DNA of 64,000 nucleotides from Candidatus Omnitrophota bacterium (GTDB lineage: Bacteria > Omnitrophota > Gorgyraeia > Zapsychrales > Aceulaceae): positions 4,921-68,920 of the forward strand of contig JAQUUP010000007.1 of the NCBI GenBank assembly GCA_028693815.1. The letters run 5' to 3'. Below are positions 31,266-58,040 of this stretch, piece by piece (within the stretch, counting starts at the first letter, position 1; the number at the start of each line of letters is the position of its first letter). Under the pieces are notes generated by a model. That model was not told where the DNA came from, made no database searches, and saw nothing but the letters and a program-made list of their open reading frames with translations. A program made the translations under genes and the position numbers.

Positions 31266-31357
31266 GGAAACCCCACGTCGCTAAAAAGCGCTCCTGGGAT
31301 AAATTCGGGCAGATAATTTACGATCGTTAACGCTCCGTAAATTATGCCCTCATTTAA
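31266..31357. repeat. structured intergenic repeat, copy A (upstream of cupin gene)
   Basis: GGAAACCCCACGTCGCTAAAAAGCGCTCCTGGGATAAATTC, then a 10-bp perfect inverted repeat ATAATTTACG...CGTAAATTAT, then CTCATTTAAGG. Confidence 0.7.
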
Positions 31358-31366
31358 GGAAAAGAA

Positions 31367-31684
31367 ATGAGTTTTGAACCAAAAGTAACTGTGTTAGCTG
31401 ATTTGGTGAGTTATCAAGATGGATCGGTTGTCAGTAAAACTTTAATCAAAAAAGAGACGGGCACTGTCACATTGTTTGCCTTTGATCAAGGGCAAGGATT
31501 AAGCGAGCATATAGCTCCTTTTGATGCTTTGGTTTGCGTGTTAGATGGTCAAGCTGAAATTATGATTTCAAATAATCTGTATGTTTTAAAAGCAGGAGAG
31601 ATGATTATATTACCAGTTAATGAACCGCATTCTTTAAAAGCGATTAAGAAATTTAAGATGATGTTGACGATGATTCGATCATAA
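31367..31684 (+). CDS. cupin-domain protein
   Basis: 105 aa small-barrel pattern (VLDGQAEI...GEMIILPVNEPH). Confidence 0.6.
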   Translation: MSFEPKVTVLADLVSYQDGSVVSKTLIKKETGTVTLFAFDQGQGLSEHIAPFDALVCVLDGQAEIMISNNLYVLKAGEMIILPVNEPHSLKAIKKFKMMLTMIRS

Positions 31685-31770
31685 AAATAGGGTAAGTTTT
31701 TAAAGTGGCAATTATTTCTAGAAATAGGATAAATTCTTAAGAAAATTTTCGATAATCTGTTGAATTAAAA

Positions 31771-34026
31771 ATGAAATTTAAAGAAATATTTGGAATAACA
31801 ACTAGCGTTCGTCAAACGTTTCGCTTTTTATTTATTAATTTCTTTAAATTTATAGTTCCTTTTGGTGTATGGGTTTTTATCTTTCGAGAAATTCTAACGG
31901 GAAGCTCTCCTGTTGATGGTGATGCTCTGGGACATTATGCATACGTTAAGTATTTTGTAGATAATCTTCGGGTTGGCAGCTTTCCTCTCTGGAATCCTTT
32001 TTTGTTACTTGGACTTCCTCAAATTTTTTATAATAGTTTTATTGGAATTTTTAATCCTATTTGGCTTGCAACCTTTTTTCTGAATTTACTTGGCGTAAAG
32101 ATTTATTTTGCTTATATCTACACAATTATTTTGTATTTCTTTGTTGGGGTATTTGGATTTTATCTTTTTGCGAAAGCTTATTTTCAGCAAAAGCGATCTG
32201 CATATATTGCGTTTCTTTTATTGTTATTTTCTTCTTTTGGAATTCCTATTCTTTGTGATCTTAAAAATATAGTCATTTTTGTTCCAGTTATTTGGTTTTT
32301 TTATTTTTGGTTACGTTTTTATCAAGAGCAAAAAATAGTTCATTTTGTTGGATTGACTTTTGTCCTAATGATAATTGCAGTATCTTATTTTCCTCCGTAT
32401 GGGTTTTCGCTTGTGTTGCTAACAGCGATATTGACTGGATTATTTTTTCCTCGGTCGTTGCTTATTTCTATTAAGTCGGTTGGCGGTTTCTTTAAGAAAC
32501 ATAAATTAGTTTTTTTTATATGTTGTTTCGTTGGCGTGATTTCCCTCTTTCCTTCAATTAAAGTGCTCGATGTTGCAAGAAATAAAGAGGTTGTTTTTCC
32601 TTTTAGAGCAGGGAATCAGCAAGATGTTGATCAGAAAGGTCCGGAAGTCGATTTGGTTCGATCGCAGGGGCTGATGTCTACGACTAGAGGGTTTGTAAAC
32701 GATTATTTAAGTATCGGTCCTTGGCATTTGTTTTATCGAGATATAACTCCTTTTTATGTTTCGATATTTGCTTATATTCTAATATTGCTCGGCGCTTTTA
32801 ATGTCTTAACAAGATCACTGATGATTAAAATTTTGCTTTGGGTAATTTTATTCTTTATTATGTTTATTCCAGCGGGCCCTGTTCACAAGCTTTTGTTTTA
32901 TGGGTTCCCCGGTTTTAATTTGATACAGGGCGTTAAATCTTTTATGCCAGCGTTTATCATGGTTTTTATTTTGTTAGCTGTGGAACAGGAAAAAAAGATT
33001 GTTGAAGAGAAATTTCTTTTATCTAGAAAAACAGCGTTGGTTTTTGTTCTTTTTGTTCATTTAGGTGTTTTCTTTTTTGTTTTAACGCGTCCCGAGAGTA
33101 TTTTTTCTTCCTATGTCTCGATTATTTTAAGTCTAGTTTATTTTATTTTGATTCTTTTTCGAAAAAGCAACACGACTATTCTTATGGCATTGGTGTGTGC
33201 TTGCATATTGTTGCAGCCTTTAGAAGTTTTATGGCGTTATGATTCCAAGCCCTACGAAGGCCCGAAGCTTGCTTCTGAAATACTCTTTTATCCTAATGCA
33301 TTGCCAACATTTGCTTACCAACGTCCACTTGCAGCGAGTTCTTTGGAGCCGCGCGAAGAGAATCTTCAATACGATGTTTCTATGCATGATGCTCCAGGAA
33401 TTGTTCTAAGCAGAGATTTTCCGACTCGATGGTCATATTCTCTTCTTCAAAAGAGTCCTTCGACAGCATTGAGGGAATATATTCAGAATAAGTTTTATTT
33501 ATATGATAATGTTGTTATTTCTGATTTTTTAGAGAGTGATATTGCTGAAGAAGTCTTAGCTAGAAAGAAAAATGTTGCTGTTGTACATGTAGAATCCAAT
33601 AAGAGTGGAAAAGGCGATATTTTGGATTTTAAAAGTTTGTTGTTAACAGATAGTAAAAATATTCTATCCCAGGCTCAAGCTGTCGAAGCGCCAAGCCGTT
33701 ATTTTGAGGTTGTTTCTTTTGGTGTAAACTCTTTGGAGATTCGGACTAATTTTGATAAGGATAAATTTTTGGTTTATACTGATAGTTACCAGTCTGATTG
33801 GAAGGCTGTTCTTAACAAAAGAACGCAAAGGATATACCGAGCAAATGTTGCTTTTAAAGGTATTTTCTTGCCACGAGGGCCTAATAATCTAACTTTAAGC
33901 TATGCTCCGATGGGAGGAGAATATACATATTGGCTTATTTTTGCTATGTACATAGGGATGTTTTTGTGGTTGATTGTTTTATTTTTTAAAGAAAGAAATG
34001 GTAAGCAAAGAATTGATACAGATTAG
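31771..34026 (+). CDS. large polytopic membrane protein, putative GT-C glycosyltransferase (YfhO-like)
   Basis: 751 aa with more than 12 TM helices plus a C-terminal soluble domain; sits next to a TPR protein and a GT2 polyprenol-phosphate glycosyltransferase. Confidence 0.4.
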   Translation: MKFKEIFGITTSVRQTFRFLFINFFKFIVPFGVWVFIFREILTGSSPVDGDALGHYAYVKYFVDNLRVGSFPLWNPFLLLGLPQIFYNSFIGIFNPIWLATFFLNLLGVKIYFAYIYTIILYFFVGVFGFYLFAKAYFQQKRSAYIAFLLLLFSSFGIPILCDLKNIVIFVPVIWFFYFWLRFYQEQKIVHFVGLTFVLMIIAVSYFPPYGFSLVLLTAILTGLFFPRSLLISIKSVGGFFKKHKLVFFICCFVGVISLFPSIKVLDVARNKEVVFPFRAGNQQDVDQKGPEVDLVRSQGLMSTTRGFVNDYLSIGPWHLFYRDITPFYVSIFAYILILLGAFNVLTRSLMIKILLWVILFFIMFIPAGPVHKLLFYGFPGFNLIQGVKSFMPAFIMVFILLAVEQEKKIVEEKFLLSRKTALVFVLFVHLGVFFFVLTRPESIFSSYVSIILSLVYFILILFRKSNTTILMALVCACILLQPLEVLWRYDSKPYEGPKLASEILFYPNALPTFAYQRPLAASSLEPREENLQYDVSMHDAPGIVLSRDFPTRWSYSLLQKSPSTALREYIQNKFYLYDNVVISDFLESDIAEEVLARKKNVAVVHVESNKSGKGDILDFKSLLLTDSKNILSQAQAVEAPSRYFEVVSFGVNSLEIRTNFDKDKFLVYTDSYQSDWKAVLNKRTQRIYRANVAFKGIFLPRGPNNLTLSYAPMGGEYTYWLIFAMYIGMFLWLIVLFFKERNGKQRIDTD

Positions 34027-34747
34027 TCAAATAAAAGGATGGTTGTTGTTTTTATCGAAAAGATGCCTTTGGGTTTATTTTATTGTAGTGTTTATTTTGG
34101 CTTATTATGCAGGGAAGCCAGATCCAGTTAATACTGTTGTTAATCGTTTAAATTATTTGCGCTTATCAGAGATCTATATTTCAGAATCATTGTCGAAGGA
34201 TCAAAAGATGTCAAAGCGAGAATATTGTTCTGCGATTAAATATTACAAAGAACTTGTTGAATTCATTGGTCCTAAGGATTATCTTTTTGCAAATATGGGA
34301 TTTTGCTGGTATCGTATTGGAGATTACAACAAAGCTCTTGAAATGTATGATCAAGCTATTCGATTAAATCCTGCAATTTATACGTATTATGCAGACAAAG
34401 GGATGATTTACCTTGCTTTAGGAAAACCCCAGGAGGCAATATCTTGGCTTGAACAATCTTTGTCAAAGATTGCACTGAGCACTCAGCATTATGATCGATA
34501 TTTGCAATCTTTGCCGGAGCCGTATAGACAATATGCGATGATAAATCTAAATATTTTGACCGTAAGACTTAAGAATGATTTGTTGTTTTTAAAGCAAAAG
34601 CTATTGGATCTTCATATGGCGAGTGTTAATGAGAAAATGAATGATATCGCGGTAAGTCCAGAAAAGATGCCTTTGCATCTTGATACTTTTTTAGGGAGAA
34701 TTTCTACGGATATAGCTGTGTTGGAAAAGGTTTATGATGGTCCGTGA
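33974..34747 (+). CDS. TPR-repeat protein with N-terminal TM helix
   Basis: TPR-like YYKELVEFIGPKDYLFANMGFCWYRIGDYNKALEMYDQAIRLNP. Confidence 0.55.
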   Translation: MFYFLKKEMVSKELIQISQIKGWLLFLSKRCLWVYFIVVFILAYYAGKPDPVNTVVNRLNYLRLSEIYISESLSKDQKMSKREYCSAIKYYKELVEFIGPKDYLFANMGFCWYRIGDYNKALEMYDQAIRLNPAIYTYYADKGMIYLALGKPQEAISWLEQSLSKIALSTQHYDRYLQSLPEPYRQYAMINLNILTVRLKNDLLFLKQKLLDLHMASVNEKMNDIAVSPEKMPLHLDTFLGRISTDIAVLEKVYDGP

Positions 34748-34800
34748 TCGTTTTTAAGGAATAATCTGATTTTTAATTCTGCTAATAGGCGAGGAGGAAG

Positions 34801-35739: not shown

Positions 35740-35787
35740 TTGTTTTATGCGCTGAAGCAGGTTGCGGGTGCGCTTTAGGAGAATAAG

Positions 35788-36243: not shown

Positions 36244-36258
36244 AAGTTAAAATAAAGA

Positions 36259-37560: not shown

Positions 37561-37568
37561 GGATTTTT

Positions 37569-39896: not shown

Positions 39897-39993
39897 GAGG
39901 ATACTCCACGTCGCCACAGAAGGCTCCTGGAGTAAGTTCAACTGACCAGCTTACGTTCCTCGCGAAGCTCGTCCATAAACTGGAGTTTCATTT
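39897..39993. repeat. structured intergenic repeat, copy B (abuts aspS start codon)
   Basis: GAGGATACTCCACGTCGCC...GGCTCCTGGAGTAAGTTCAACT, then hairpin AGCTT...AAGCT, then ACTGGAGTTTCATTT | ATG. Confidence 0.7.
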
Positions 39994-41373
39994 ATGTTAA
40001 GAACACACACGTGCGGCGAATTAAATAAAACGCACAAAGATCAAGAGGTTACGCTTTGCGGCTGGGTGCATCGAAGACGTGATCATGGAAAACTTATTTT
40101 TATTGATGTTCGAGATCGTTACGGTTTTACGCAGGTTGTTTTTGTTCCATCGGTTAGCAAAGATGCTCATGAAAAAGCACAACAGCTTGGCCCAGAGTTT
40201 GTTGTTAAAATTACAGGCACAGTTAATGTTCGTCCAGAAAAGAATGTTAATGCAGATATCCCAACAGGGACGATTGAGCTTTGTGCGACTGGTCTTGAGA
40301 TTTTAAACGCATCAGAGGTGCCTGTTTTTGAAATTGATGATGAGGGCGATGTTTCAGAAGAATTACGTCTTGCTTATCGTTATCTGGATTTAAGGCGCCA
40401 AAAACTTCAGACGTCTTTAAGTTTGCGTCACAAGCTTTGCTCGACGATTCGAAATTTTCTAGATAATGAAAGCTTTATTGAGATTGAAACGCCTGTTTTG
40501 ACTAAGTCCACGCCTGAGGGAGCAAGGGATTTCTTAGTACCTTCTCGATTAAATCCAGGTGAGTTTTTTGCATTGCCGCAGTCACCGCAGTTGTTTAAGC
40601 AAATCTTGATGGTTTCTGGAATGGATAAATATTATCAGATCGTCAAATGTTTTCGCGATGAAGATCTTCGAGCTGATCGCCAGCCGGAATTTACTCAGTT
40701 GGATATGGAGATGTCTTTTGTTGAACAAGATGATATTTTTGATTTGACGGAAAGAATGTTTAAAAAAGTTTTTAAAGAAGTTAAAGGGATTGATATCCCG
40801 ACACCTTTTCCTCGAATGACACATGCCGAGGCGATGGAAAAATACAAAAGCGATAAGCCAGACATAAGAAAAGAGGGTCAAGAATTTGCATTTCTTTGGG
40901 TTGTTGATTTCCCATTATTTAAGTATAATGATCAAGACAAGCGTTGGGAAAGCGAGCATCATCCGTTTACGTCATTTTATGAAGAAGACGAAAAACTTTT
41001 AGATGGAAAAGATTTAAACAAGATTCGCTCACGCTCGTATGACCTTGTTTTAAACGGAAATGAGATTGGAAGCGGATCTGTTCGTATTCATAAACAAGAT
41101 GTACAAAAAAAGATATTTGATATAATAGGGTTTGATGAGCAAGAAGCTGAAAAGCGTTTTGGGTTTTTGTTGAAAGCGTTTAAATATGGAGCGCCGCCAC
41201 ATGCGGGCGTTGCTTATGGGATTGATCGGCTGGTTGCACTTTTAACGGGTCTAGATTCAATTCGAGATACTATTGCTTTTCCAAAGACACAAAAAGGAAA
41301 TTGCCTTTTGACAGATGCGCCGACACCTATTGATACAAAACAGCTTAAAGATTTAGGATTAAAGGAATTATAA
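39994..41373 (+). CDS. aspS: aspartate--tRNA ligase, short archaeal/eukaryal-type (no GAD insertion)
   Basis: 459 aa; N-terminal OB fold, class II motifs (FRDEDLRADRQPEFTQLD; GAPPHAG), no bacterial insertion domain. Confidence 0.88.
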   Translation: MLRTHTCGELNKTHKDQEVTLCGWVHRRRDHGKLIFIDVRDRYGFTQVVFVPSVSKDAHEKAQQLGPEFVVKITGTVNVRPEKNVNADIPTGTIELCATGLEILNASEVPVFEIDDEGDVSEELRLAYRYLDLRRQKLQTSLSLRHKLCSTIRNFLDNESFIEIETPVLTKSTPEGARDFLVPSRLNPGEFFALPQSPQLFKQILMVSGMDKYYQIVKCFRDEDLRADRQPEFTQLDMEMSFVEQDDIFDLTERMFKKVFKEVKGIDIPTPFPRMTHAEAMEKYKSDKPDIRKEGQEFAFLWVVDFPLFKYNDQDKRWESEHHPFTSFYEEDEKLLDGKDLNKIRSRSYDLVLNGNEIGSGSVRIHKQDVQKKIFDIIGFDEQEAEKRFGFLLKAFKYGAPPHAGVAYGIDRLVALLTGLDSIRDTIAFPKTQKGNCLLTDAPTPIDTKQLKDLGLKEL

Positions 41374-41395
41374 TTTAGGAGTCCTTGATTTGTCC

Positions 41396-41609
41396 CTTTA
41401 GGGCGCGGGATTCGCAGGATAATCTAAGATAAAATTGGTAGTTTCGAAAATAAAGTTTTCGGAATAAATTCGCACAGATTTTTTGCGAGACAATATTTAT
41501 TAATTTCATTAACCCCGCTTGAGCGGGGTAAATTCGCAGACGGCCTTTGGCCTATGATTTATGTCACAAATGTGACATAAATCATCTGCTCATTTAAAGG
41601 AGGAGAAAG
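41396..41609. repeat. structured intergenic repeat region, copy F
   Basis: GGAATAAATTCGCACAG..., 7-bp hairpin ACCCCGC-ttga-GCGGGGT followed by TAAATTCGCAG, GGCCtttGGCC, a 12-bp perfect palindrome GATTTATGTCAC-aaa-GTGACATAAATC (41556-41583), then CTCATTTAAAGGAGG. Confidence 0.6.
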
Positions 41610-42146: not shown

Positions 42147-42162
42147 CGGCGCAAAATATCTT

Positions 42163-44882: not shown

Positions 44883-45613
44883 TTCTTCAAGCTGAAGGTA
44901 TTGTTTTAAAGACTTTTGATTTTCGAGAGACGAGCCGTATCGCAACATTTTTTACAAAAGAATACGGCAAGGTCAAAGGGGTTTTAAAAGGAATCCGAAA
45001 AGATCACAAAAAATTTGGAAGTAACATTGACCAGTTCTCGGTCAATGACATTGTTTATTACACTCACCGTAATTCTGATTTACATCTTATTAGCCAGTGT
45101 GATTTAAAAGCGTTTTTCTTTCCGATTCGACAAGATATGAAAAGAACTTTGGCGGCAAGTTATTCGTTAGAATTGGTAGATTCTATCATGCCGGTTGAAG
45201 AGCCAAACAAAGATATTTATAGGCTTTTATTGTATTATTTAAATACACTGGAACATACCGATGATATTAATAAGTTGGTGCATATATTTCAAATTAAGAT
45301 TTTATTGCTCTCTGGGTTTCGTCCATTTTTAGATTCGTGCGTGGTTTGCCAGAACAAAATAACGCCTCGTATGCGTTTTAGCATGAAATTGGGAGGTTTG
45401 ATTTGTGAAGACTGTCGATCCAATGATCATTCGGCCAATATGGTTTCAAGAGGGACTATTGCTTCGCTAGTGCATATTGAAAAAAGTAGCTGGGAGAAAG
45501 CTTTGCGATTGAATCTTTCGGTGATGACGGAGAAAGAATTAAAATATATTCTTAATAATTTTCTTATATTTCATCTCGAGCGTCACATCAAAGCGACAAA
45601 GTATTTAAAATAA
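44879..45613 (+). CDS. recO: DNA repair protein RecO
   Basis: Begins ILQAEGIVLKTFDFRETSRI; OB fold plus C-terminal Cys4 zinc finger (CVVCQN...CEDC). Confidence 0.85.
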   Translation: MILQAEGIVLKTFDFRETSRIATFFTKEYGKVKGVLKGIRKDHKKFGSNIDQFSVNDIVYYTHRNSDLHLISQCDLKAFFFPIRQDMKRTLAASYSLELVDSIMPVEEPNKDIYRLLLYYLNTLEHTDDINKLVHIFQIKILLLSGFRPFLDSCVVCQNKITPRMRFSMKLGGLICEDCRSNDHSANMVSRGTIASLVHIEKSSWEKALRLNLSVMTEKELKYILNNFLIFHLERHIKATKYLK

Positions 45614-45695
45614 GGACATGACTTAGAGAGCTTTTGCGAATCTAAGTCATAAGTCCGAATTTATTCCGAGCGCAAGCGAGGAATCGCAAAAGGTG
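45614..45695. repeat. inverted-repeat element between convergent recO and helicase genes, copy G (likely bidirectional terminator / repeat relative)
   Basis: GACTTAGA-gagcttttgcgaa-TCTAAGTC and CGAATTTATTCCG (reverse complement of the CGGAATAAATTCG motif seen in copy F). Confidence 0.45.
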
Positions 45696-49081: not shown

Positions 49082-49200
49082 TTAATAATATAAATGATCG
49101 CATGTTTTTATGGAGCAACGACGACATAAAACATATGCGAGAATTTATCCCGAGATATTCTAAGAAAGAATATATCGGGATTATATCTGAAAGCTTATTT

Positions 49201-49647
49201 ATGAAAATTGTTATTCAAAGAGTTAAGCAAGCGAGTGTTACGGTTTCTCAGAAGATTATTGGCAAAATTGATCAGGGAATTTTGGTTTTGTTGGCTATTG
49301 CCAAAGACGATGATGCAAGTGATATTGAATATTTGGTTAATAAGCTTGTGGATTTAAGAATTTTTGAAGATCAAGACGGCAAAATGAATGCTTCTGTTTT
49401 AGATATTAAAGGTGAATTCTTAGTTGTATCGCAGTTCACACTTTTAGCGGATTGTAAAAAAGGCAGAAGGCCTTCTTTTGATAAGGCGGCTGATCCAAAA
49501 AAGGCCAAAGAGCTCTACGAGCAATTTGTTGAAGTTTTGCGCAAAAAAGGATGCAAGGTCGAAACCGGAGAGTTTGGCGCGACGATGGATGTCGCGCTTG
49601 TTAATGATGGGCCCGTGACGTTTACGCTAGAGAGCGCAGAAAATTAA
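49201..49647 (+). CDS. dtd: D-aminoacyl-tRNA deacylase
   Basis: 149 aa, [13 protein letters not shown]..., SQFTL motif, C-terminal [10 protein letters not shown]. Confidence 0.88.
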
Positions 49648-49975
49648 TGGAAACCCCACGTCGCTTAAAAAGCGCTCCTGGGGTAAATTCAACCTAAGAC
49701 TTGCGTCGCATTTTATAAAATGATGATGCTCCGCAAGTCAAAGGATTCATTTATGATGGATGTCGCACTTGTCAATGATGGGCCTGTGACGTTCACGCTA
49801 GAGAGCGCAGAAAATTAATGGAAACCCCACGTCGCTTAAAAAGCGCTCCTGGGGTAAATTCAACCTAAGACTTGTGTCGCATTTTATAAAATGATGATGC
49901 TCCGCAAGTCAAAGGATTCATTTATGATGGATGTCGCGCTTGTTAACGATGTGCCTGTGACGCTGATTATAGAGA
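49584..49975. repeat. 171-bp tandem duplication (2 full + 1 partial copy) of the dtd 3' end plus an intergenic repeat element
   Basis: Unit starts at 49584, 49755 and 49926 (GATGGATGTCGC...); copies about 95% identical; the third copy diverges after about 45 bp. Confidence 0.9.
49753..49818 (+). pseudogene. duplicated dtd C-terminal fragment ([21 protein letters not shown])
   Basis: In-frame copy of the last 20 codons of dtd preceded by ATG-ATG and the element's RBS. A further degraded copy lies at 49924-49995. Confidence 0.6.
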
Positions 49976-50088
49976 GTAAGGGTGTTGGTATCTAGTATCT
50001 AGAAAGGGAAAAAGCGGCAGGGAACGGGTGATAGGCATTTTTGTTATTATTAGACAAGAAATTGAGAAGAAGAAAAAGGAGGGGTACA

Positions 50089-50397
50089 ATGGGCAAAAAA
50101 GAACAATTAGTATCGGCGATAATGGGAGGTTTTGCGATTGCAACTTTTATTTCTTTTGTTGAATTTACTATTTATAAGGATGATTCTGTTAATTTCTTAG
50201 TAGCTAAATTTCTTTTTTATTTTGCATCTTTCATTATAGTAATGTATTTCTCTGTATCTCAGCAAAAGAAACGAATGGATAAGTGGAAAGAAAACCACTA
50301 TTCAAAATTAAATCAAGAAGAATTCAGGTGTTTTAAGTGCAAAGCTCTTATTAATCAAGATGACGAAAAATGTCCTCAGTGTGGATGGAAATGGTAA
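50089..50397 (+). CDS. small membrane protein with C-terminal zinc ribbon
   Basis: Two TM helices, then CFKC...CPQC; AAGGAGG RBS before MGKKEQ. Confidence 0.5.
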   Translation: MGKKEQLVSAIMGGFAIATFISFVEFTIYKDDSVNFLVAKFLFYFASFIIVMYFSVSQQKKRMDKWKENHYSKLNQEEFRCFKCKALINQDDEKCPQCGWKW

Positions 50398-50430
50398 AGA
50401 ATTCCAGTGACCCGTCTAGGGTAATTTAAA

Positions 50431-50706
50431 ATGAAGAAAATTATAATAGCGCTTATTATTTTTAGTTTTTGTGGATGCGGTCTGGTGCCTGCTTATAGAC
50501 GAGCTCAGCCTGATTTTCAAAAAGCTGCAAATATGATGCTTTATGGTGGCTCAAAAAATATGGTTCGATCAGATTGGGGAGAACCCGATAAGAAGGAAAT
50601 TCTTGAAGATGGCACAGAAGCATGGACGTATTATAATCGTCAAGATGGTAGAACTTTTATTTTTTATTTTAATAAAAAAGCAAGGCTTGTAAGAGCTAAA
50701 ATTTAA
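50431..50706 (+). CDS. small lipoprotein, BamE/SmpA-OmlA-like
   Basis: Lipobox FCGC; about 70-aa mature domain with MVRSDWGEPDKKEI...EAWTY, like SmpA_OmlA. Confidence 0.4.
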   Translation: MKKIIIALIIFSFCGCGLVPAYRRAQPDFQKAANMMLYGGSKNMVRSDWGEPDKKEILEDGTEAWTYYNRQDGRTFIFYFNKKARLVRAKI

Positions 50707-50791
50707 TAAGGCGGCTGGTGCTTTTTAAGGTTTTCTTAATTAGGTACGTGTCCCCGGAACTATGCTCAGGACAGAAAGAAGAGGATAACAG

Positions 50792-51754
50792 ATGAAGAAA
50801 TTTCTACTTGCCACAGGTATTGTGTTGATTGTTTTTGCTGTCTTGATGTTTTTAATTGACGCTTCTTCAATGTGCATGATATCTGTTATTTGCATGATCA
50901 TTGGTGGATGTATGTTGGGTTATAGCGATTGGCTTGCCATTAATGATATTAGAAAAGAAGTCAGTGCTAGTTCAGTATTTTGTTTCTTATTAGCTCTAAC
51001 AACAGCGGCATTGATTGCTTTATCAACGCGTATCGGAATTATCGTCGAATTAGTGACTCCTTTTCTGGTCCTAGCTTCGCTGGTGACTGGTGGTATTTTC
51101 TTTTTTTTCTACAAGAAAAAAGGTGGGCTGCTGTGCTTTAAGTCTGTAGCTATAACAGGAGTATCACTTAGTGTATTCATGTCAATGATGGTTATTCTTG
51201 GCATTATTGATAATTTTTCGAATTTTCCAGAAAGTTATAACGATCGAGCTTCACAATATAAGTATTGGAAAGCCAGTGAATATGTTTCACGAGACAAATG
51301 GGATGCTGCGATCAAAGAACTTGATGAGGCGATAGCCTTGTCACCCGACGATGGCCGCTATTATGAAAAACGGGGTTACGCTTATCTTAGCAAGGGTGAT
51401 GATGATAAAGCCATGTCTGATTATAAAATGATGGAGCTCTATTCTAATGAAAATTCTAGAGGTTTAAGCTATGGAGCTCGTGGTGATGTATATTTGAAAA
51501 GAGGCGAATATGATAAGGCAATAACGGATTATAGCAAGGCCATTGAATTGTCAAAGCACTTTTTGGAGCCTTACTATCAAGGACGCGCTAGAGCATTCTT
51601 TGAGAAGAATGAATACGACAAAGCATGGGAGGATCTTCAAAAGCGAACCCTGTATTTTGAACCGACTCAAGAGGAAGATTTTGTAAAAAAACTTAAAGAA
51701 TGGAATAAGAATAAAACAATTCGCGCGAGTTATCCTGGGCTTGATGGACACTAG
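50792..51754 (+). CDS. membrane protein with C-terminal TPR repeats
   Basis: 4-5 TM helices, then TPR motifs (AIALSPDDGRYYEKRGYAYLSKGDDDKAMSDY...). Confidence 0.55.
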   Translation: MKKFLLATGIVLIVFAVLMFLIDASSMCMISVICMIIGGCMLGYSDWLAINDIRKEVSASSVFCFLLALTTAALIALSTRIGIIVELVTPFLVLASLVTGGIFFFFYKKKGGLLCFKSVAITGVSLSVFMSMMVILGIIDNFSNFPESYNDRASQYKYWKASEYVSRDKWDAAIKELDEAIALSPDDGRYYEKRGYAYLSKGDDDKAMSDYKMMELYSNENSRGLSYGARGDVYLKRGEYDKAITDYSKAIELSKHFLEPYYQGRARAFFEKNEYDKAWEDLQKRTLYFEPTQEEDFVKKLKEWNKNKTIRASYPGLDGH

Positions 51755-51828
51755 ATTTTGGGAGATGTCCCTAATTAAGGATGCGGTGGCGGAGGGTTTA
51801 TCCTGTGCTCAAATAATTATCTTAACTT

Positions 51829-52860
51829 ATGGTTAAAAAACTTTTGAAATCAATTCAACTTAAAGTTTCTCTCGCCGGCAATTATCCGGCGCTGGCTGCG
51901 CGCGTGAAAGGTGAGCTGAGTAGTCTTGAGGTTCTTGTTAAACGAGAGACCATTAAGTCTTATTGGAATATTGGGAAATTCATTCATAGTCATTTGCTGG
52001 AAAATAAGGAAAGAGCCCAATACGGAAATCTATTGTACGAACGGCTTTCTAGAGATGTAGGCAGGGATAGTTCTACTTTAAGGCGGACAGTAAAGTTTTA
52101 TCTTGCGTATCCTCGAATTCAGGCCTCGAGGCCTGAATTGAATTGGACACAATATAAGCAATTAATTACGATTAAAGATAAAGACGAGCGAAAACAGTTA
52201 GAAGAGCAGTTTGTTAAAAAGGGATTTGACGCGCGTAAATCCCAGGCGTTCTTGAATTTCAAAAAAACACAATTAGCTGCCAAAGACGCGCCTGACAAGC
52301 CGGTTGTGCAATTATCATTTGCTCGAGGAAAACTTTTGACGTACAGCTTTATTGAAAGTAAGGAGTCGGATGTGGGATTGCTCCTTGATTTAGGTTTTCG
52401 AATTCGCAGGAACTTCGAAGAGTTAAAGGGCACAAAATTTGTTAAAGGTGATTGCGTTAGGGTTTTAAACAAAAACTCTTTCGTCAAAGCAGACGTTAAA
52501 AAAGAAGAACTTTTTACATATTTCGCGACCATTGAAAAAATCATCGACGGCGATACGTTGACAGTTTTGCTCGACTTAGGGATGGGGTTGTTTGTTCAGC
52601 AGAAATTGAGATTACGAGGAATTGATTGCCCGGAGATGGATACCGATGATGGAGTGAGGGCAAAAAAGTTTGTGCAGACCAAGCTCGGTAAGCTTGATTT
52701 TATTATTGTCAAAACTTACAAAGATTCAAGCGACAAGTACGATCGGTATTTGGCAGATATTTTTTATTTGGTTGATGAGCGCGACCCTGAAAGGGTCGCG
52801 CAAGAAGGCGCTTATCTTAATCAGGTGCTTTTGGACGAACGCTTGGCGTGCGTGTATTGA
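51829..52860 (+). CDS. DUF1016(YhcG)-N domain fused to staphylococcal-nuclease (SNase/thermonuclease) domain
   Basis: N-terminus YWNIGKFI...YGNLLYERLSRDVGRDSSTLRRTVKFYLAYP (DUF1016_N pattern); C-terminus IDGDTLTV...LRLRGIDCPE...DRYLADIF (SNase motifs). Confidence 0.6.
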   Translation: MVKKLLKSIQLKVSLAGNYPALAARVKGELSSLEVLVKRETIKSYWNIGKFIHSHLLENKERAQYGNLLYERLSRDVGRDSSTLRRTVKFYLAYPRIQASRPELNWTQYKQLITIKDKDERKQLEEQFVKKGFDARKSQAFLNFKKTQLAAKDAPDKPVVQLSFARGKLLTYSFIESKESDVGLLLDLGFRIRRNFEELKGTKFVKGDCVRVLNKNSFVKADVKKEELFTYFATIEKIIDGDTLTVLLDLGMGLFVQQKLRLRGIDCPEMDTDDGVRAKKFVQTKLGKLDFIIVKTYKDSSDKYDRYLADIFYLVDERDPERVAQEGAYLNQVLLDERLACVY

Positions 52861-52929
52861 AGGAGGATTTATAAAAAATGATTTTTTATCTATAGACAAG
52901 AGAGGGATAGAATTTTAAGATAAAAAAAT

Positions 52930-53685
52930 ATGAAAACGATTTATTTAAAATTATGGATGACATTGTTTGCTTGCCTTGTTTTTGGTGTTCAGGGTGTTAG
53001 TGCCCAAGACGGTAAGGGAGACTTGATTGCTGGTGGAACGGTTGTGATTTTAGGTCAAAGAATATCGCCACCTTATAAAATTGAAATAAGAAATAACGAG
53101 ACATGGATCAACGACATTCTCGCTGAACCTCTTGTGAACAAAAGGGCTCGAGTCCTGCCAGTTGTCACAGATGATATACGAAAGAAGCATGATTTTATTT
53201 CTCGTCTTACGGACGACTATTTGTATTTTTATAAACGATTTGGACGAGAGAAATTTCAAAAAAAACTTTTAGAAAAATATAAAAAAGATTCTTCTGCGTC
53301 ACAGTTAAATTTTTATAAAGAAGATTTAGAGGTGATTTTTAAAGATGGAGAAAAAGAGTTTTTGATGATGGGCCATTCGAGATCTCTTATTGATCGAAAT
53401 ATTAGTCGTGAAGAATGGGCAAGAACGGTTAAGGAAGGTAATCAAAATGCCCGAAGAGAAAGCATTAAAATGCATGAGCGGCTTCTTAAGCGGGGTGGGA
53501 TGTTGATTTATGATTATGGAAGTATGTCTGCTATGCCGCCTGCTATTGCTCAAAACATTATTGCAGGTTTAAAAAATTTAAAAGAAAATTCTTGGTCTTT
53601 GGAACAAACTCGAGAAGAGCTTAAACGCTTAGGAATTTCGGATCGTGTTTTTGAGCATATTCAAGAAAATTGTGCCTCTTGGTAA
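52930..53685 (+). CDS. secreted hypothetical protein
   Basis: Signal peptide (FGVQGVSAQ); 251 aa, charged, no recognisable family. Confidence 0.45.
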   Translation: MKTIYLKLWMTLFACLVFGVQGVSAQDGKGDLIAGGTVVILGQRISPPYKIEIRNNETWINDILAEPLVNKRARVLPVVTDDIRKKHDFISRLTDDYLYFYKRFGREKFQKKLLEKYKKDSSASQLNFYKEDLEVIFKDGEKEFLMMGHSRSLIDRNISREEWARTVKEGNQNARRESIKMHERLLKRGGMLIYDYGSMSAMPPAIAQNIIAGLKNLKENSWSLEQTREELKRLGISDRVFEHIQENCASW

Positions 53686-53818
53686 TTGTGGGGCTTTGCT
53701 GAAAATTTCTGGGCGAAGAGAATAGGCTAGATGTTTACGAATGTGATGCAAAAGGCATAATAACAAAGAATTGTTCGCTAGATTTTTATTAAACTTATTA
53801 CTTAAAAATTTACTTATG

Positions 53819-54583
53819 ATTAATTTAATAGATACTCACGCACATCTTGATGGGATTGAAGATATTGATTCTGCTTTAAACAGAGCCAAAGAAGCAGGCG
53901 TGACAACAATTATTGCGCAGGGCGTGGACTTAGCATCAAACAAAAAGAATCTAGCCATTAAGCAAAAGTTTTTGGATTTGGATATTCGCCTTGCGTTTGG
54001 GATTCATCCTGGCAATATTATTGATGATGAAATTGAAGAGACTTTTAAATTTATCCGAGACCATAAATCTGATATTGTGGCGATTGGAGAGACAGGACTA
54101 GACTTTTGGTATCGATGGGTTCGAAAAAGTGACGAAAAAAAACAGCAGCAAAAACAAATTCTTGAACGGCAAATTGATTTGGCTAAGGAATTTGATTTGC
54201 CGATTGTGATTCATAGCCGCGGAGCGTGGGCTGATTGTTTTTCGATGGCTGAAAAAAACGATGTTGAAAAAGCTGTGTTTCATTGGTATAGTGGGCCTGA
54301 GGATGTTCTTAAAAGTATATTGAATAAAGGGTATTTTATTTCGGCGACACCTGCTTTGGCGTATAGTCCAGAGCTTCGAGTGGCTGTCAAGCTGGCACCG
54401 ATTGATCAGATTTTGATTGAAACCGATTCGCCGGTTTTTTACCGCATTGGAGAAGGCGGATTTCAAGCTGAACCAAAGGATGTTTTTCGAACATTAGAGT
54501 TCTTAAGTGAGATAAAGAATATTGATTTAGAAAAAGCAGCTAATCTTCTAAATCAAAACGCCAAAAAAGTTTTTGGAGAATAA
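53819..54583 (+). CDS. tatD: TatD-family metal-dependent DNase/hydrolase
   Basis: MINLIDTHAHLD, GETGLDF, HSR, and ETDSP motifs. Confidence 0.85.
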   Translation: MNLIDTHAHLDGIEDIDSALNRAKEAGVTTIIAQGVDLASNKKNLAIKQKFLDLDIRLAFGIHPGNIIDDEIEETFKFIRDHKSDIVAIGETGLDFWYRWVRKSDEKKQQQKQILERQIDLAKEFDLPIVIHSRGAWADCFSMAEKNDVEKAVFHWYSGPEDVLKSILNKGYFISATPALAYSPELRVAVKLAPIDQILIETDSPVFYRIGEGGFQAEPKDVFRTLEFLSEIKNIDLEKAANLLNQNAKKVFGE

Positions 54584-54586
54584 ACG

Positions 54587-55372
54587 ATGTACGAAGTTGT
54601 TAGCAAGCAAGTGATTGGAGATGAATTAAGGCGCATTGAGATTGTCGCTCCTGCGATTTGCACAAAAGCACAGCCTGGCCAGTTTGTCATGGTTGCGCCA
54701 GATGAAAAATCTGCACGTGTTGCCTTAATGATTGCTGGAGTTAATGCTTTAAAGCAAACGATTACTTTGATTTTTAAAGAAGACAGTTTGTCGATGAAAA
54801 GACTTGGATCTTTATGGATTGGGGATTCTGTGTTTGCGTTGTTAGGTCCTTTGGGCAAGCCATCTGAAATTAAGGAATTTGGCAATGTTCTTTGCATTGG
54901 ATATGAAACAGGCGCGGTTTCGCTTCTTACGATTTGCCGGGCTTTGCATAAAGCTGAGAACAAAGTTATTAGCGTGTTGGGAGCTAAGACAAAAAGAGAT
55001 TTATGCCTTCAGCCGCAGATTCATCTGTGTTCTCAGAAATCTTATGTGATGTCTGAAGATGGATCGGTTGGGGAAAGAGGATACATTACCGATGGTTTAG
55101 AGAAGATTTTTGTCGAGCAAGAAATTGATCGTATTTATGTTGCTGGTCCTCTGGCTGTTATTCAGGAAGTTTTAAGTAGTGTACGCGATAAAGGAATTTT
55201 GACAAAAGTTTTGATTAATCCAATGACGATTGATGGATTTGGAATTTGTGGATGCGATTTGATTAAGGTTAAGGACCGGTATGTGTCTATTTCAATTGAA
55301 GGTCCAGAATTTGATGCTGATGAAATAGATTTTGCATTCTTTGAAACAAAAATGAAGAATTTTAAAGCATGA
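54587..55372 (+). CDS. PyrK-like FAD/NAD(P)-binding oxidoreductase subunit with C-terminal [2Fe-2S] motif (NfnA/SudB-like)
   Basis: Ferredoxin-reductase-like fold with a C-terminal FGICGCD cysteine cluster; paired with a GltD-like subunit. Confidence 0.7.
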   Translation: MYEVVSKQVIGDELRRIEIVAPAICTKAQPGQFVMVAPDEKSARVALMIAGVNALKQTITLIFKEDSLSMKRLGSLWIGDSVFALLGPLGKPSEIKEFGNVLCIGYETGAVSLLTICRALHKAENKVISVLGAKTKRDLCLQPQIHLCSQKSYVMSEDGSVGERGYITDGLEKIFVEQEIDRIYVAGPLAVIQEVLSSVRDKGILTKVLINPMTIDGFGICGCDLIKVKDRYVSISIEGPEFDADEIDFAFFETKMKNFKA

Positions 55373-55421
55373 GGATTATTCGAGAAAGGAGACCCCTTCT
55401 CCATAATTTTGGAGCTCATTT

Positions 55422-56825
55422 ATGAAAAGAATTTCAGAAAACATACAACCCGCTCTTAAGCGACTTAAAAGTTTTTGTGAAGTTGTTTTGGGATTTAAAA
55501 AAAATCAAACAGTTTCAGAAGCGCATCGTTGTCCGCAGTGTTCGCATCCAAAGTGTGTTGTGGGGTGTCCTCTAAAAATTGATATTCCTGGTTTTATCCG
55601 TTCATTGCGCGAAGGAAATAGCGCAAAAGCCCTTCATCGCATCAGAGAACAAAATAGTTTGGCTGGAATTTGCGGACGTCTTTGTTCGGCGCCTTGCGAA
55701 CAAACTTGTATTTTAAATGAAGAAGAAGGCGCTGATCCTATTAGCATCAAAGGTCTTGAGCGATTTGCCTTTGATCAAGGACAATCTGCCTTTAAGCAGC
55801 TTTTTAATGCAGAGAGCTCGAATCAAAATAATCGGAAAGTGGCGGTTGTAGGTTCTGGTCCGACGGGTTTAACCGCGGCTTCGGTTTTGGTTGAGGCAGG
55901 ATATCAGACGACAATCTTTGAAGCGTTGCACTTGCCTGGAGGAATTTTGCGCTATGGGATTCCTGAGTTTCGATTACCTAAAAAAGTTTTAGATGACGAA
56001 ATTAAATATATTGAATCTTTAGGCGTTAATATTCAAACAAATTGTCTGATTGGAAGAACGTCTACTATTGCCGATTTAAAAGATTTGGGATATGAAGCTA
56101 TTCTTTTGGCTACGGGTGCGTCCGTTTCTGAGATGCCGGATATTCCTGGAGCACAATTAAAGGGAGTGCATTTTGCTCAAGAATTTTTGATGCGTACAAA
56201 TCTAATCAATGAACAGCAATCTTTTAAATCAGAGATCGCTGATTTGTTTGGTGAAAAAATTGTTGTGATTGGGTCTGACACAATGGCTCTTGATTGTGTG
56301 CGTGTGGCTGTTCGATTGAACAAGCAGGCAACTGTTATTTGTTCTCAAGGAGAAGATGGAATTCAAGCGACCGAAAGCGAACGCGAGCACGCCAAAGAGG
56401 AAGGCGTTCATCTGGAAGTTTTAACGAGCCCAATTGAAATCTTATCTGATGAAAACAATTGCGTGAAAGCTGTTCGGTGCATTCGAATGGATTTTGCGGA
56501 TAAAGATGGTAAAGGATTGTGGAAAGTGGTTCCTGTTAAGAATTCTGAGTTTATTATCGAGGCGGATACGATCATTCTTTCTGACATGGGGACATCGAAT
56601 TCATTAATTATGCGAGAAGTTAATGATTTGAAAATAAGCAAGAATAATTCTATTTGGATCAAAAAGAATGAATACAGTACATCTGTTGATGGCGTTTTTG
56701 CCGCAGGTGGAGTTGTGGATAAATCTCTTAGTTTGATTGATGCCCTTTATCAGGGTAAGACGGCGGCACAAAAGATTGATTCGTATATCCAAGAAAAAAA
56801 TAAAAATGAAGAAACAAACGCTTAA
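55422..56825 (+). CDS. glutamate-synthase-small-subunit-like NAD(P)H:ferredoxin oxidoreductase (NfnB/SudA/GltD-like)
   Basis: Two [4Fe-4S] Cys clusters (CPQCSHPKCVVGCP; CGRLCSAPCEQTC), then FAD/NAD Rossmann folds (VAVVGSGPTGLTAA). Confidence 0.8.
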   Translation: MKRISENIQPALKRLKSFCEVVLGFKKNQTVSEAHRCPQCSHPKCVVGCPLKIDIPGFIRSLREGNSAKALHRIREQNSLAGICGRLCSAPCEQTCILNEEEGADPISIKGLERFAFDQGQSAFKQLFNAESSNQNNRKVAVVGSGPTGLTAASVLVEAGYQTTIFEALHLPGGILRYGIPEFRLPKKVLDDEIKYIESLGVNIQTNCLIGRTSTIADLKDLGYEAILLATGASVSEMPDIPGAQLKGVHFAQEFLMRTNLINEQQSFKSEIADLFGEKIVVIGSDTMALDCVRVAVRLNKQATVICSQGEDGIQATESEREHAKEEGVHLEVLTSPIEILSDENNCVKAVRCIRMDFADKDGKGLWKVVPVKNSEFIIEADTIILSDMGTSNSLIMREVNDLKISKNNSIWIKKNEYSTSVDGVFAAGGVVDKSLSLIDALYQGKTAAQKIDSYIQEKNKNEETNA

Positions 56826-57684
56826 AGATATAGTAGATAAAAAAACTTCTGGTGAAAAGATCACGATGCTTACGGCTTACGATTATCCGATGGCTAGGAT
56901 CATTGATCAGGCGGGTATCGATATTATTTTGGTCGGCGATTCTGTTGCCAATGTTGTTTTAGGATTAGATTCCACAAAAGCGATGACCATGGATCAGATG
57001 ATTTATCATGCCAGTGCTGTTCGAAGAGGGGCCCCAAATGCATTGGTTGTTGGCGACATGCCGTTTGAGTCATATCAAGTTGATAGTGTTAGGGCTGCTT
57101 GTAATGCAAAGCGTTTTGTTAATGAAGCAGGCTGTGATGCTATTAAATTAGAATGGTTTGATCAGTGCTTAGACGTGGCGAAAGAAATTATAAAGTCAGA
57201 AGTTTCTGTGATGGGGCACATCGGCTTAACGCCGCAAACAGCCGATCGCTTAGGGGGTTTTAAAGTTCAAGGAAAAGATGCTGAGTCGGCAAAACATTTA
57301 ATCGATCAAGCTCAGGCGTTGGAGCAAGCAGGGTGTTTTAGTTTAGTTTTAGAATGTATTCCAGATAAAATTGCTCAGATGATCACAGAAAAGTTGAGTA
57401 TTCCAACAATTGGCATTGGCGCAGGGCCTCATTGCGATGGGCAGGTTTTGGTGACACATGACATTTTAGGATTTTTTGATCGTTTCAAACCAAAATTTGT
57501 TAAGCAATACATGGATTTAAGCTCGATGATTACTGGCGCGGTTACGCTTTACCGTAATGAAGTTTTATTGAGTCAGTTTCCAAGCAAAGAGCAGAGTTTC
57601 ATTATAAAGGATGAGGAGATGGATAAGTTAAGACGAAACCCCGCGTCGCTTAAAAACGCTCCTGGGGTAAATTCGCACGAATAA
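56806..57684 (+). CDS. panB: 3-methyl-2-oxobutanoate hydroxymethyltransferase with C-terminal extension read from repeat element
   Basis: KITMLTAYDYPMARI, GHIGLTPQ motifs; the last 15 codons (...RRNPASLKNAPGVNSHE*) are translated from repeat copy D. Confidence 0.85.
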   Translation: MKKQTLKDIVDKKTSGEKITMLTAYDYPMARIIDQAGIDIILVGDSVANVVLGLDSTKAMTMDQMIYHASAVRRGAPNALVVGDMPFESYQVDSVRAACNAKRFVNEAGCDAIKLEWFDQCLDVAKEIIKSEVSVMGHIGLTPQTADRLGGFKVQGKDAESAKHLIDQAQALEQAGCFSLVLECIPDKIAQMITEKLSIPTIGIGAGPHCDGQVLVTHDILGFFDRFKPKFVKQYMDLSSMITGAVTLYRNEVLLSQFPSKEQSFIIKDEEMDKLRRNPASLKNAPGVNSHE

Positions 57685-57727
57685 CTTTGCACTCCTTGTA
57701 GTCGTGCAAGCTATGTGCTCATTTAAA
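57635..57727. repeat. structured intergenic repeat, copy D (overlaps panB 3' end)
   Basis: GAAACCCCGCGTCGCTTAAAAACGCTCCTGGGGTAAATTCGCACGA..., hairpin GCACGA...TCGTGC, then GTGCTCATTTAAAA. Confidence 0.7.
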
Positions 57728-57730
57728 AAA

Positions 57731-57930
57731 GTTCTGATTCGCCCCGCTAGGCCGCGGGGCTTACAGGGGAATCCTCAGTTCGTCGATTCCTTGAGGATTA
57801 ATTCGCCTGACAGATTTACAGTCACTGATGCTCTGTAAATCTGAGGCTCATTAAAATTCGCGCAGGCTGACTTGACGTCTCGCCAAAGCTCGACGTAAGT
57901 CAGGCGCTTATTATAGGAGTTTCATTTAAA
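57731..57930. repeat. inverted-repeat-rich repeat-family member, copy D2
   Basis: GCCCCGC-taggcc-GCGGGGC; AATCCTCA...TGAGGATT followed by AATTCGCC; 11-bp perfect IR CAGATTTACAG...CTGTAAATCTG; CATTAAAATTCGCGC; CTGACTTGACGTC...GACGTAAGTCAG; ends ATAGGAGTTTCATTTAAAC. Confidence 0.6.
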
Positions 57931-57938
57931 CAAAAATT

Positions 57939-58040
57939 GAGGATACTCCGCGTCGCCCAAAAAAGAATGAAGGGCTCCTGGAGTAAATTCAACTAACAAT
58001 TTACGAGCCGCTTTCGCGCTCGTAAATAGGAGTTTCATTT
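57939..58040. repeat. structured intergenic repeat, copy E (abuts start codon of 58041 gene)
   Basis: GAGGATACTCCGCGTCGCCC...GGGCTCCTGGAGTAAATTCAACT, 9-bp IR TTTACGAGC...GCTCGTAAA, then TAGGAGTTTCATTT | ATG. Confidence 0.7.

Follow-up and report, generated by a model that had tools for sequence, protein, structure and literature searches.

The ERIC, Correia (NEMIS) and BOX repeats, intergenic sequences of ~100–150 nt, are co-transcribed and form stable RNA hairpins with orientation-dependent effects on mRNA processing or stability. Phage T7 has RNase III sites, conserved hairpins of ~60–100 nt with internal loops, which lie between cistrons right before the next ribosome-binding site (RBS); they are fixed, non-mobile and belong to one genome. 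The subject of this report is a family of two-hairpin repeats found in a 64-kb stretch of an Omnitrophota contig (the window, from whose first letter all coordinates of its copies are counted), and it is set beside these systems and two others. The CGTC-tagged superfamily of repetitive extragenic palindromic (REP) sequences is built of 20–40-bp units with an 8–9-bp stem starting with two A-T pairs, a 4–5-nt loop and a CCA tail, arranged mostly as head-to-head dimers, and Omnitrophota is not among the phyla for which that work lists CGTC repeats (PMC3733652). The same paper places REP-type sequences mainly in gaps between unidirectional or convergent genes, rarely between divergent ones, and occasionally within genes (PMC3733652). 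For the transposon IS608, two papers describe pairing of a guide with the cleavage site, subterminal hairpins and a lagging-strand preference (PMC3201880, PMC5027513).

Almost all that is known of the uncultured phylum Omnitrophota comes from metagenome-assembled genomes (MAGs), and searches of Rfam 15 and of the literature brought up no RNA or repeat family from it. The repeats described here are probably small, non-autonomous, mobile or proliferating structured units of the REP/ERIC-like kind, and among the collections scanned they were found only in this phylum. The evidence includes a fold maintained by compensatory substitutions, and orthologous sites that are filled in some genomes and empty in others.

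The repeat family and its fold

The pattern CGTCGC-N(4-30)-CTCCTGGRRTAARTTC is found six times in the window, always on the + strand (at 31276, 39909, 49659, 49830, 57644 and 57951), and not once in 100 dinucleotide-preserving shuffles. Short motifs taken separately are non-significant, TAAATTCR having 21 matches against 15.6 expected and GAGTTTCATTT, with one mismatch allowed, seven against 4.3, so that the evidence for the repeats rests on their combined architecture. A covariance model, R1, built from 19 copies of the element and used to scan the window and the loci of its relatives, detects 10 full-length copies in the window, eight on the + strand and two on the − strand, as well as two or three partial modules, all within 31–58 kb (Table 1); the same scan gives no copy in the first 31 kb. 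Six clear copies (A, B, C1, C2, D and E; 71–95 bits) had already been pointed out in a preliminary description of the window; they are real, and their boundaries had been placed correctly within 3 nt. The looser relatives F, G and D2 named there were recovered with R1 as well (31, 49.7 and 46.3 bits), G on the − strand, which had gone unmentioned.

The unit measures ~85–105 nt and has a 5′ RAGGAWA motif and two hairpins, P1 and P2. P1 is composed of an outer stem AYCCCR/UGGGRU, a bulged C, a G-C pair and a symmetric UC/UC internal loop, followed distally by a G-C and then a C-G pair, which close a hairpin of variable length (2–8 bp). P2 opens immediately with UAAAU, passes through a second UC/UC loop and a covarying 4-bp basal stem (GCAC/GUGC, AACU/AGUU, GGGC/GCCC and others), and closes with UC-AUUUA. 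Its upper stem is long, with the core YUUAYG/CRUAAR, and in most copies a third loop, CG(A)UC...CUC-CG, lies beyond it. CGTC stands ahead of the inner P1 hairpin in at least 48 of 57 aligned copies (columns 13–16), and CGTC, TGTC or CGATC appears again ahead of the distal P2 hairpin; the inner stems begin with G-C and C-G pairs, are 2–8 bp long, and have loops of 4–13 nt and a UCC tail. The two tagged hairpins are arranged head-to-tail and nested in outer helices. RNAalifold and a hand-drawn model agree on the two-hairpin structure, and single-sequence folds of the window copies give the same architecture (z −1.5 to −8.2).

The two-hairpin fold is maintained by compensatory substitutions and is strand-specific. 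A MAFFT alignment of 19 sequences, independent of R1, is 96.1% paired, against at most 44% with slid partners. In an alignment of 51 distinct copies from ~20 Omnitrophota genomes and metagenome contigs, which was fitted to R1, 95.7% of the cells hold standard pairs, against at most 42% when the 3′ partners are slid by 1–3 columns; changes on both sides occur in 18 of the 23 pairs, and none of 500 shuffles matches the observed value on any measure. Among the paired cells there are 58 G·U and only 3 A·C combinations, by which the fold is assigned to the strand described and not to its complement. U66, C67, U208 and C209 are nearly invariant. Covariation in both alignments thus bears out the earlier proposal of a modular family with a selected secondary structure, and several of its details are to be revised. 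The compensatory change from C-G to U-A in the outer stem exists, although copy A has a C·A mismatch there. TAAATTC, described as invariant, reads TAAGTTC in copy B, and the second hairpin, thought to differ in every copy, has the common YUUAYG...CRUAAR core and the same UC/UC loops throughout. As for the conserved tail, only TCATTTA deserves the name: the family-wide form is (GTGC)TCATTTA, with GGAGTT ahead of it in B, E and D2b alone, and copy C has AAGGATTCATTTA.

Filled and empty orthologous sites

The synteny set consists of the loci of seven AspRS orthologues that are 75–94% identical (L052–L058). Between hisS and aspS the window has a 115-nt spacer with copy B, whereas the relatives have a gap of 27, 26, 27 or 9 nt or overlapping genes; copy B is absent from L052, L053, L054, L055, L056, L057 and L058. 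The stop codons of recO and the helicase gene, separated by 82 nt with copy G in the window, have just 2 nt between them in L052 and L053. Between aspS and the LysM gene the window has 236 nt, with F1 and F2, while in the seven relatives the two genes overlap or leave a spacer of up to 70 nt. Alignments of filled with empty sites show clean insertions of ~88, ~82 and ~170 nt. When R1 was run on the relatives with filters off, a search that the preliminary description had proposed, only two of the seven loci gave a copy: one in the 21-kb L052 locus and one in L054 ahead of guaB, with no significant copy in L053, L055, L056, L057 or L058. The L052 copy (3011–3103) follows the DUF2621 gene and is the positional counterpart of copy A.

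Two further polymorphic sites lie outside the window. L015 is filled (1605–1688) and L020 empty at a site between radA and a PIN gene, and L024:631–722 is an in-frame insertion of 93 nt (31 codons) in an open reading frame (ORF) of 1337 amino acids, the orthologue of which, a giant gene in L053 (17800–21380+), has no copy. The in-frame insertion resembles the Rickettsia palindromic elements and intragenic REPs. Presence/absence polymorphism is thus seen at five sites, hisS-aspS, aspS-LysM, recO-helicase, radA-PIN and one inside the giant gene, which indicates that the family is gained or lost at the DNA level and that the lineage of the window underwent an expansion. There are 10–11 copies in 27 kb of the window, compared with none or one in the syntenic relatives. 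Of the explanations offered earlier, a MITE-like (miniature inverted-repeat transposable element) or REP-like family is the one that these sites back. Lack of covariation and lack of positional conservation had been named beforehand as grounds for refutation; covariation proved strong, while positional conservation mostly fails, B, F and G being absent in relatives and only A having a counterpart.

Gene context and orientation

On the 3′ side of 50 unique copies, a start codon overlaps the last A of TCATTTA in seven cases, a Shine-Dalgarno (SD)-like sequence lies at most 3 nt downstream in 16, another element comes next in two, and none of these is found in 25; altogether 23 copies adjoin an SD or ATG. 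The preceding gene frequently has its stop codon no more than 7 nt from the 5′ end of the element. The genes downstream, named from their N-terminal sequences except for the Pfam-annotated ones of the window, are unrelated housekeeping genes: aspS (twice), radA, serC, serA, thrS, ilvE, rplS, rpsU, kdpB, kdpC and phoU. This diversity supports the argument made earlier against a riboswitch for a single ligand. A riboswitch or gene-specific leader would keep its position before orthologous or related genes, whereas this element is missing ahead of aspS and the LysM gene in the relatives checked; it behaves like a small mobile element and not like a gene-specific regulatory leader.

The tail had also been regarded as the source of the SD for the downstream gene, which would make each copy a portable leader. 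This applies to one subfamily, B/E, but not in general: AGGAGG lies outside the tail in 16 of the 50 copies, half of them have no start next to them, two window copies lie on the opposite strand, and at aspS the RBS GGAGTTTTATTTATG is already present in relatives without the element.

Between co-directional genes 26 copies are in sense and four or five in antisense orientation, with seven further copies between convergent and one between divergent genes, numbers that rest on rough ORF-based gene calls. This is the location typical of REPs, i.e., transcribed extragenic sequence between unidirectional or convergent genes. The GC skew of the window is uniformly positive (+0.13 to +0.23; G 22% versus C 15% on the + strand), and nearly all ORFs listed between 27 and 59 kb are on the + strand. 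With this skew and this gene orientation, and with G·T pairs tolerated in DNA hairpins too, orientation cannot separate selection at the RNA level from selection at the level of single-stranded DNA (ssDNA). In a scan for promoters and terminators no U tract was found after P2, by which a terminator reading is ruled out; the sole terminator-like call overlapping a copy is marginal and lies on the − strand at 49152–49138, at the P1/P2 junction of the antisense copy and not after P2.

Insertion sites and tandem duplications

At all four intergenic empty sites T(C/T)ATTT(A/T) directly borders the insertion point on its 3′ side (Table 1). TYATTTW precedes 9 of 79 gene starts and occurs in 4.4% of random windows of 38 nt, and with so few starts preceded by it or a variant TCATTTA is ruled out as a general RBS motif. 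In filled sites the heptamer is usually TCATTTA, which pairs with the UAAAU of the element and forms the last half-helix of P2. The intragenic empty site has no heptamer, and the copy inserted there ends with TCATAAA. From the aligned sites we conclude that insertion is directed to, or recombines through, a heptamer like the element's own end. Terminal inverted repeats (TIRs) are lacking, the 5′ RAGGAWAYCCC and 3′ GYGCTCATTTA not being reverse complements, and a check for flanking duplications, also suggested earlier, revealed no target-site duplication (TSD) in five filled/empty alignments (three window sites, L015/L020 and L024/L053). The element thus has neither the terminal inverted repeats nor the fixed-length duplication of classical MITEs. 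Site-specific recombination with a duplicated ATTTA core is ruled out, as the left junctions of B, G and L015:1605 are without the core.

The 3′ end of dtd (49584–49995) carries a 171-nt tandem duplication whose unit joins the final 68 nt of dtd to the element (97% identity), and after it comes a third, more diverged dtd tail (84% identical). Each tail starts at an ATG overlapping TCATTTA, generating mini-ORFs of 21 and 23 amino acids. In L052 the native C-terminus (..VLDSK*) is similar to this third tail (..IIESKGVGI*). Another genome offers the same picture in L018:2395–2545: a LacI-type regulator gene has its final 19 nt (TCGTTCGGCAATCCACCT plus stop) repeated after a first element, and a second, different element follows. 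The repeated gene tails vary in length (19 and 68 nt) and represent tandem duplications of tail and element, not target-site duplications; this variability suggests slippage or template switching at the hairpins.

It is also worth mentioning that in another Omnitrophota MAG (L010:1657–1744, − strand) the element adjoins the 3′ end of dtd in the opposite orientation, which suggests that this is a recurrent insertion site. Beyond the array, the window has ~3.8 kb (50041–53685) between dtd and a probable tatD (53771), two genes that overlap (ATGA) in L052 (18201). This insert starts right after the element/tail array and contains five genes, for a zinc-ribbon protein, a small lipoprotein-like ORF, a TPR protein and two others. 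At 55409–55424, ahead of a gltD-like gene (55422..56825) and with no element upstream, the window reads GGAGCTCATTTATG, perhaps a target site without an element, perhaps the solitary remnant of an element end.

Interpretation and rival explanations

If the element is a proliferating repeat, its placement may largely follow from the compactness of the genomes, in which an insertion would survive only if it fell between a stop codon and the SD after it. With spacers of 2–70 nt in the relatives, only such insertions leave both genes working, and survival at these positions alone would give copies that fill whole intercistronic gaps and adjoin the RBS. Copies in sense orientation, the majority, would be transcribed within operon mRNAs, where the two stable hairpins probably act like REP, ERIC or phage T7 RNase III sites, on processing or stability and on access to the downstream RBS. 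In the B/E subfamily, with the GGAG SD in the P2 3′ strand and ATG right after the helix, the structure should hinder initiation unless it is processed or melted. The three identical UC/UC internal loops would imply a dedicated trans-acting partner, be it a transposase, an RNase or an RNA-binding protein.

Several observations weigh against this interpretation. The hisS-aspS gap is occupied both in the window and in a distant locus, L042, and copy A and its L052 counterpart are several compensatory changes apart; this double occupancy and these compensatory differences could reflect selection for a local function. The mean mutual identity of the window copies is 49%, the same as between copies from different genomes, which makes a single recent burst unlikely. 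Divergence of the intergenic sequences blurs the insertion boundaries and leaves no nucleotide-exact edges, the orientation counts share the roughness of the gene calls, and no transposase or recombinase came to light, although the tblastn search of 525 kb with an IS608 TnpA query that gave no match is weak negative evidence.

The first two of these points would suit an RNA dedicated to cis-regulation, as a 5′ leader or between cistrons, on which an RNA-binding protein, RNase or small RNA specific to the phylum would act; it would be kept for regulating the downstream gene, and its spread would be secondary. Such a leader would also explain why the 3′ end of 23 of 50 copies overlaps ATG or is no more than 3 nt from an SD, why the fold is on the sense strand, and why each unit has three near-identical UC/UC loops, resembling repeated protein-binding sites. 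It is nevertheless unlikely, given that orthologous sites are empty in seven relatives, that 25 of 50 copies are not beside a start, that some are antisense, in convergent 3′ gaps or, once, intragenic, that the downstream genes have nothing in common, and that aspS has its RBS without the element. Origin from an ssDNA transposon of the IS200/IS605 (PATE/REP) type, with hairpins read on one strand by an HUH/Y1 enzyme, is compatible with a proliferating repeat and possible, if rather doubtful. Internal TAAAT at the foot of P2 would pair with an ATTTA cleavage or target site, insertions adjoin a specific heptamer complementary to this internal sequence, TIRs and TSDs are lacking, folding is strand-specific, and P1 and P2 have the same loop motif. 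The folding strand is moreover the G-rich + strand in eight of the 10 full copies, and a G-rich strand would be the lagging-strand template. IS608, however, inserts 3′ of its target, and here the element goes in on the 5′ side of the heptamer, as read on the folding strand; the copies G and 49091 are on the other strand within one replichore, the intragenic empty site has no heptamer, and the 525 kb gave no Y1 transposase match, subject to the weakness of that search. A more far-reaching proposal, decidedly unlikely, combines a mobile RNA/DNA unit that picks its sites by base pairing, UAAAU(UC) with a pre-existing T(C/T)ATTTA just upstream of an RBS, with a self-contained translation module that then repairs its own damage. 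The target heptamer would become the closing half-helix, and the unpaired 5′ AAGGA, folded beside the start codon, would serve as a structure-bridged SD. Target pairing or SD bridging would, if true, give selfish elements a novel means of persisting in the operons of compact genomes.

The bridging part can be judged separately, as a portable translation cassette in which P1/P2 folding brings the unpaired 5′ AAGGA next to the start codon. A 5′ GGA is present in 7/7 ATG-abutting copies, as opposed to 7/16 SD-followed copies (Fisher p = 0.019) and 6/28 other copies (13/44 non-abutting in all), and in the copies of L012, L015 and L020 the 15 nt next to the ATG contain no SD. All seven abutting copies come, however, from one AT-rich lineage and include tandem and orthologous pairs, leaving ~4 independent cases, and B, E and C carry an SD-like GGAG or AGGA inside P2, so that such a cassette is highly unlikely. 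A new self-cleaving ribozyme, or a dedicated RNA-processing site that separates cistrons, would fit the clustering of near-invariant nucleotides in internal loops and junction, and the dispersed, sometimes tandem, intercistronic position of the copies. It is very improbable, as Rfam gave no ribozyme match and the many degenerate P1 loops would lack a catalytic core. A portable promoter, with TTGACG-N15-TAAGTT in distal P2 as −35/−10 and a start near TCATTTA, can practically be ruled out: GC-rich lineages do read TTGACG, 15 nt and TAAGTT ~7 nt before TCATTTA, but the 15-nt spacer is short, no + strand copy in the window has a sigma-70-like site, the putative −10 positions covary as base pairs, and copy C has CGCAAGTC, which destroys the −10 box. 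Coding of a small peptide is ruled out, only copy C beginning with ATG. An integron attC site is improbable as well: the flanking syntenic housekeeping genes are present in relatives without the element, and no R′/R″ boxes were seen by eye.

Comparison with described systems

Like the CGTC REPs (Di Nocera et al. 2013), the element is extragenic, multi-copy and palindromic, has the same genomic distribution and is plausibly transcribed and active as RNA; it also shares with them an unpaired CGUC before a short inner GC hairpin and a short pyrimidine tail (UCC). No dedicated transposase is known for the CGTC type; REP/REPIN families have a single-copy RAYT (Y1 transposase) gene flanked by the repeats, and the weak TnpA search of 525 kb gave no match to such an enzyme. 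It differs in its size of 85–105 nt, its two nested hairpins, its 2–8-bp stems that begin with G-C and C-G, the UCC form of the tail and the head-to-tail arrangement. On these sequence features it is not filed within the CGTC REP superfamily.

With BOX the element shares modularity, the P2-only modules D2b and F1 being comparable to the iterated middle modules of BOX. ERIC and Correia have terminal inverted repeats and TA duplications, of which the element has neither, and the UC/UC-loop architecture and the TCATTTA end set it apart from ERIC, Correia and BOX alike. Its placement between cistrons before the next RBS is that of the T7 RNase III hairpins; T7 sites are fixed, unlike the element, which is probably mobile. 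With IS200/IS605 and PATEs, the lack of TIR and TSD, the one-strand hairpins near both ends, insertion next to a short specific sequence that can pair with internal sequence, and a strand bias are common features (PMC3201880, PMC5027513). The target-hairpin geometry of IS200/IS605 is different, and the terminal helix of the element is an ordinary Watson-Crick continuation of its hairpin.

Distribution

Exact-pattern scans covered 185,579 species genomes, JGI metagenomes and viral contigs. True copies were found only in Candidatus Omnitrophota MAGs (including Ca. Aceula lacicola and Ca. Aceula meridiana), two MAGs labelled Planctomycetales, one unclassified MAG and metagenome contigs; the nine remaining genome hits, which are due to chance, show none of the element outside the pattern, and the viral contigs gave no match. 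The AspRS of the window is 100% identical to an NCBI 'Candidatus Omnitrophica bacterium' protein and 94% identical to that of Ca. Aceula lacicola. Four copies on contigs of one metagenome sample, Ga0080064, two of them sharing a contig, are 93–96% identical to one another, and taken with the 49% average of the window this group shows that recent bursts and old, diverse lineages both exist. With 10–11 copies in the window and at most one in syntenic relatives, the element can be regarded as a marker of recent genome change.

A search of the whole window against Rfam 15 at the gathering threshold returned a single tRNA and no family match for the repeats, a check also listed in the preliminary description. 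In E-value mode (window 57500–58100 and 31220–31400, L018:2350–3300 and L034:6720–6920) there were only chance-level hits with E of at least 0.5, far below gathering scores. Full-text literature searches found no description of such a repeat, nor of any repeats or structured RNAs of Omnitrophota. The element is apparently undescribed and has an unusual loop motif and target rule, the general REP/MITE-like category being well known.

Copies in the window and minor observations

The copies and modules of the window are listed in Table 1 together with the enlarged units and the empty sites. According to Pfam, the gene order around them is dnaE, DUF2621, [A], cupin; hisS, [B], aspS, [F1 F2], LysM lipoprotein, phoH, HD, ybeY, recO, [G, −], Hel308-like helicase (−); radical SAM, [antisense copy], dtd, [C1][C2]; and panB, [D][hairpin][D2a][D2b][E], zinc-ribbon protein.

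Table 1. Location of element copies, modules, enlarged units and empty orthologous sites
Feature	Location	Strand	Context and remarks
Copy A	window 31264..31356	+	between DUF2621 gene and cupin gene; R1 95.3 bits; TCATTTA then AGGAAAAGAAATG; single-sequence fold shows P1, P2 and UC/UC loops, z −3.2
Copy B	window 39897..39994	+	hisS-aspS spacer; R1 71.1 bits; GGAG inside P2 3′ strand; aspS ATG overlaps the final base of the element
F1, degenerate module	window 41435..41505	+	hairpin, TAAATTCGCAC, truncated second hairpin, end TTTCATTAA; weak R1 match 41435–41499 (9.4 bits, E 4.2); within the ~170-nt insertion relative to L052/L053
F2	window 41506..41596	+	R1 31 bits; fold z −8.2; P1 reduced to CCCCGC-TTGA-GCGGGG; P2 canonical, TAAATTC-GCAG...CTGC-TCATTTA; then AAGGAGG and LysM gene start
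Copy G	window 45607..45690	−	gap between stop codons of convergent recO (+) and Hel308-like helicase (−); R1 49.7 bits; fold z −3.8
Antisense copy, new to this analysis	window 49091..49187	−	antisense to both + flanking genes (radical SAM, dtd); R1 43.5 bits; fold z −5.9; P1 without CGUC loop
Copies C1 and C2	window 49647–49753 and 49818–49924	+	tandem structure 49584..49995 at dtd 3′ end; R1 79 and 76.9 bits
Copy D	window 57632..57725	+	overlaps 3′ end of panB ORF; R1 87.7 bits
Accessory module	window 57738..57764	+	GATTCG then GC hairpin CCCCGC-TAGGCC-GCGGGG; read directly
D2a, diverged full element	window 57765..57854	+	ends TCATTAA; R1 46.3 bits; fold z −2.6
D2b, second-hairpin-only module	window 57855..57927	+	AATTC-GCGC...GCGC then TTATTATAGGAGTTTCATTTA; partial R1 match 57855–57912 (model positions 39–91), 14.7 bits
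Copy E	window 57939..58041	+	B subfamily; GGAGTTTCATTTA ends at ATG of zinc-ribbon membrane protein gene; R1 75.5 bits; fold z −3.9
Copies with extra P2-loop modules	L018:2527-3043; L046:11160-11318; L050:190-336; L040:474-608; L032:2103-2244
Empty site aspS	L053, L056		GGAGTT-TTATTTA-TG
Empty site LysM	L052, L053		TCATTTA in L052; TTATTTA in L053
Empty site recO/helicase			TTATTTT, on the − strand
Empty site radA-PIN	L020		TTATTTA

The ORF 56737..57684, panB by Pfam, runs through P1 of copy D, its stop codon (57682–57684) lying inside P2. Its last ~17 codons (RNPASLKNAPGVNSHE) are encoded by the element, and the Pfam domain extends only to residue 283 of 315. Annotation has to reckon with such effects of the copies: false extensions of ORFs, as in the panB tail, mini-ORFs like those of the dtd tails, and insertions that stay in frame within giant genes.

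Some copies outside the window have extra conserved hairpin modules in the P2 loop, e.g., CCAAGCAATCAAGCTTGG and GTGCCGCA..TGCGGC, which bring the units to 135–517 nt; these could be larger parent forms or nested insertions. The longest, the 517-nt composite L018:2527–3043, gave no interpretable fold and no Rfam match. A module of GATTCG and a GC hairpin lies beside elements in the window (57738–57764 and 41386–41420) and is present after aspS in L052 (11390–11420), the relative without F; in the D2 copy of the window it has a CTAGGCC-type loop. In GC-rich Omnitrophota (L034, L038 and L018 compared), a CTAGGYC-loop hairpin forms the distal P1 of the copies. The window tRNA is located at 5497–5568. 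A near-consensus sigma-70-type promoter (TTGACC, 17 nt, TATAAT; 11/12) is found at window 49053–81, upstream of the antisense copy and dtd; if it is used, the 5′ untranslated region of dtd would include the complement of the element.

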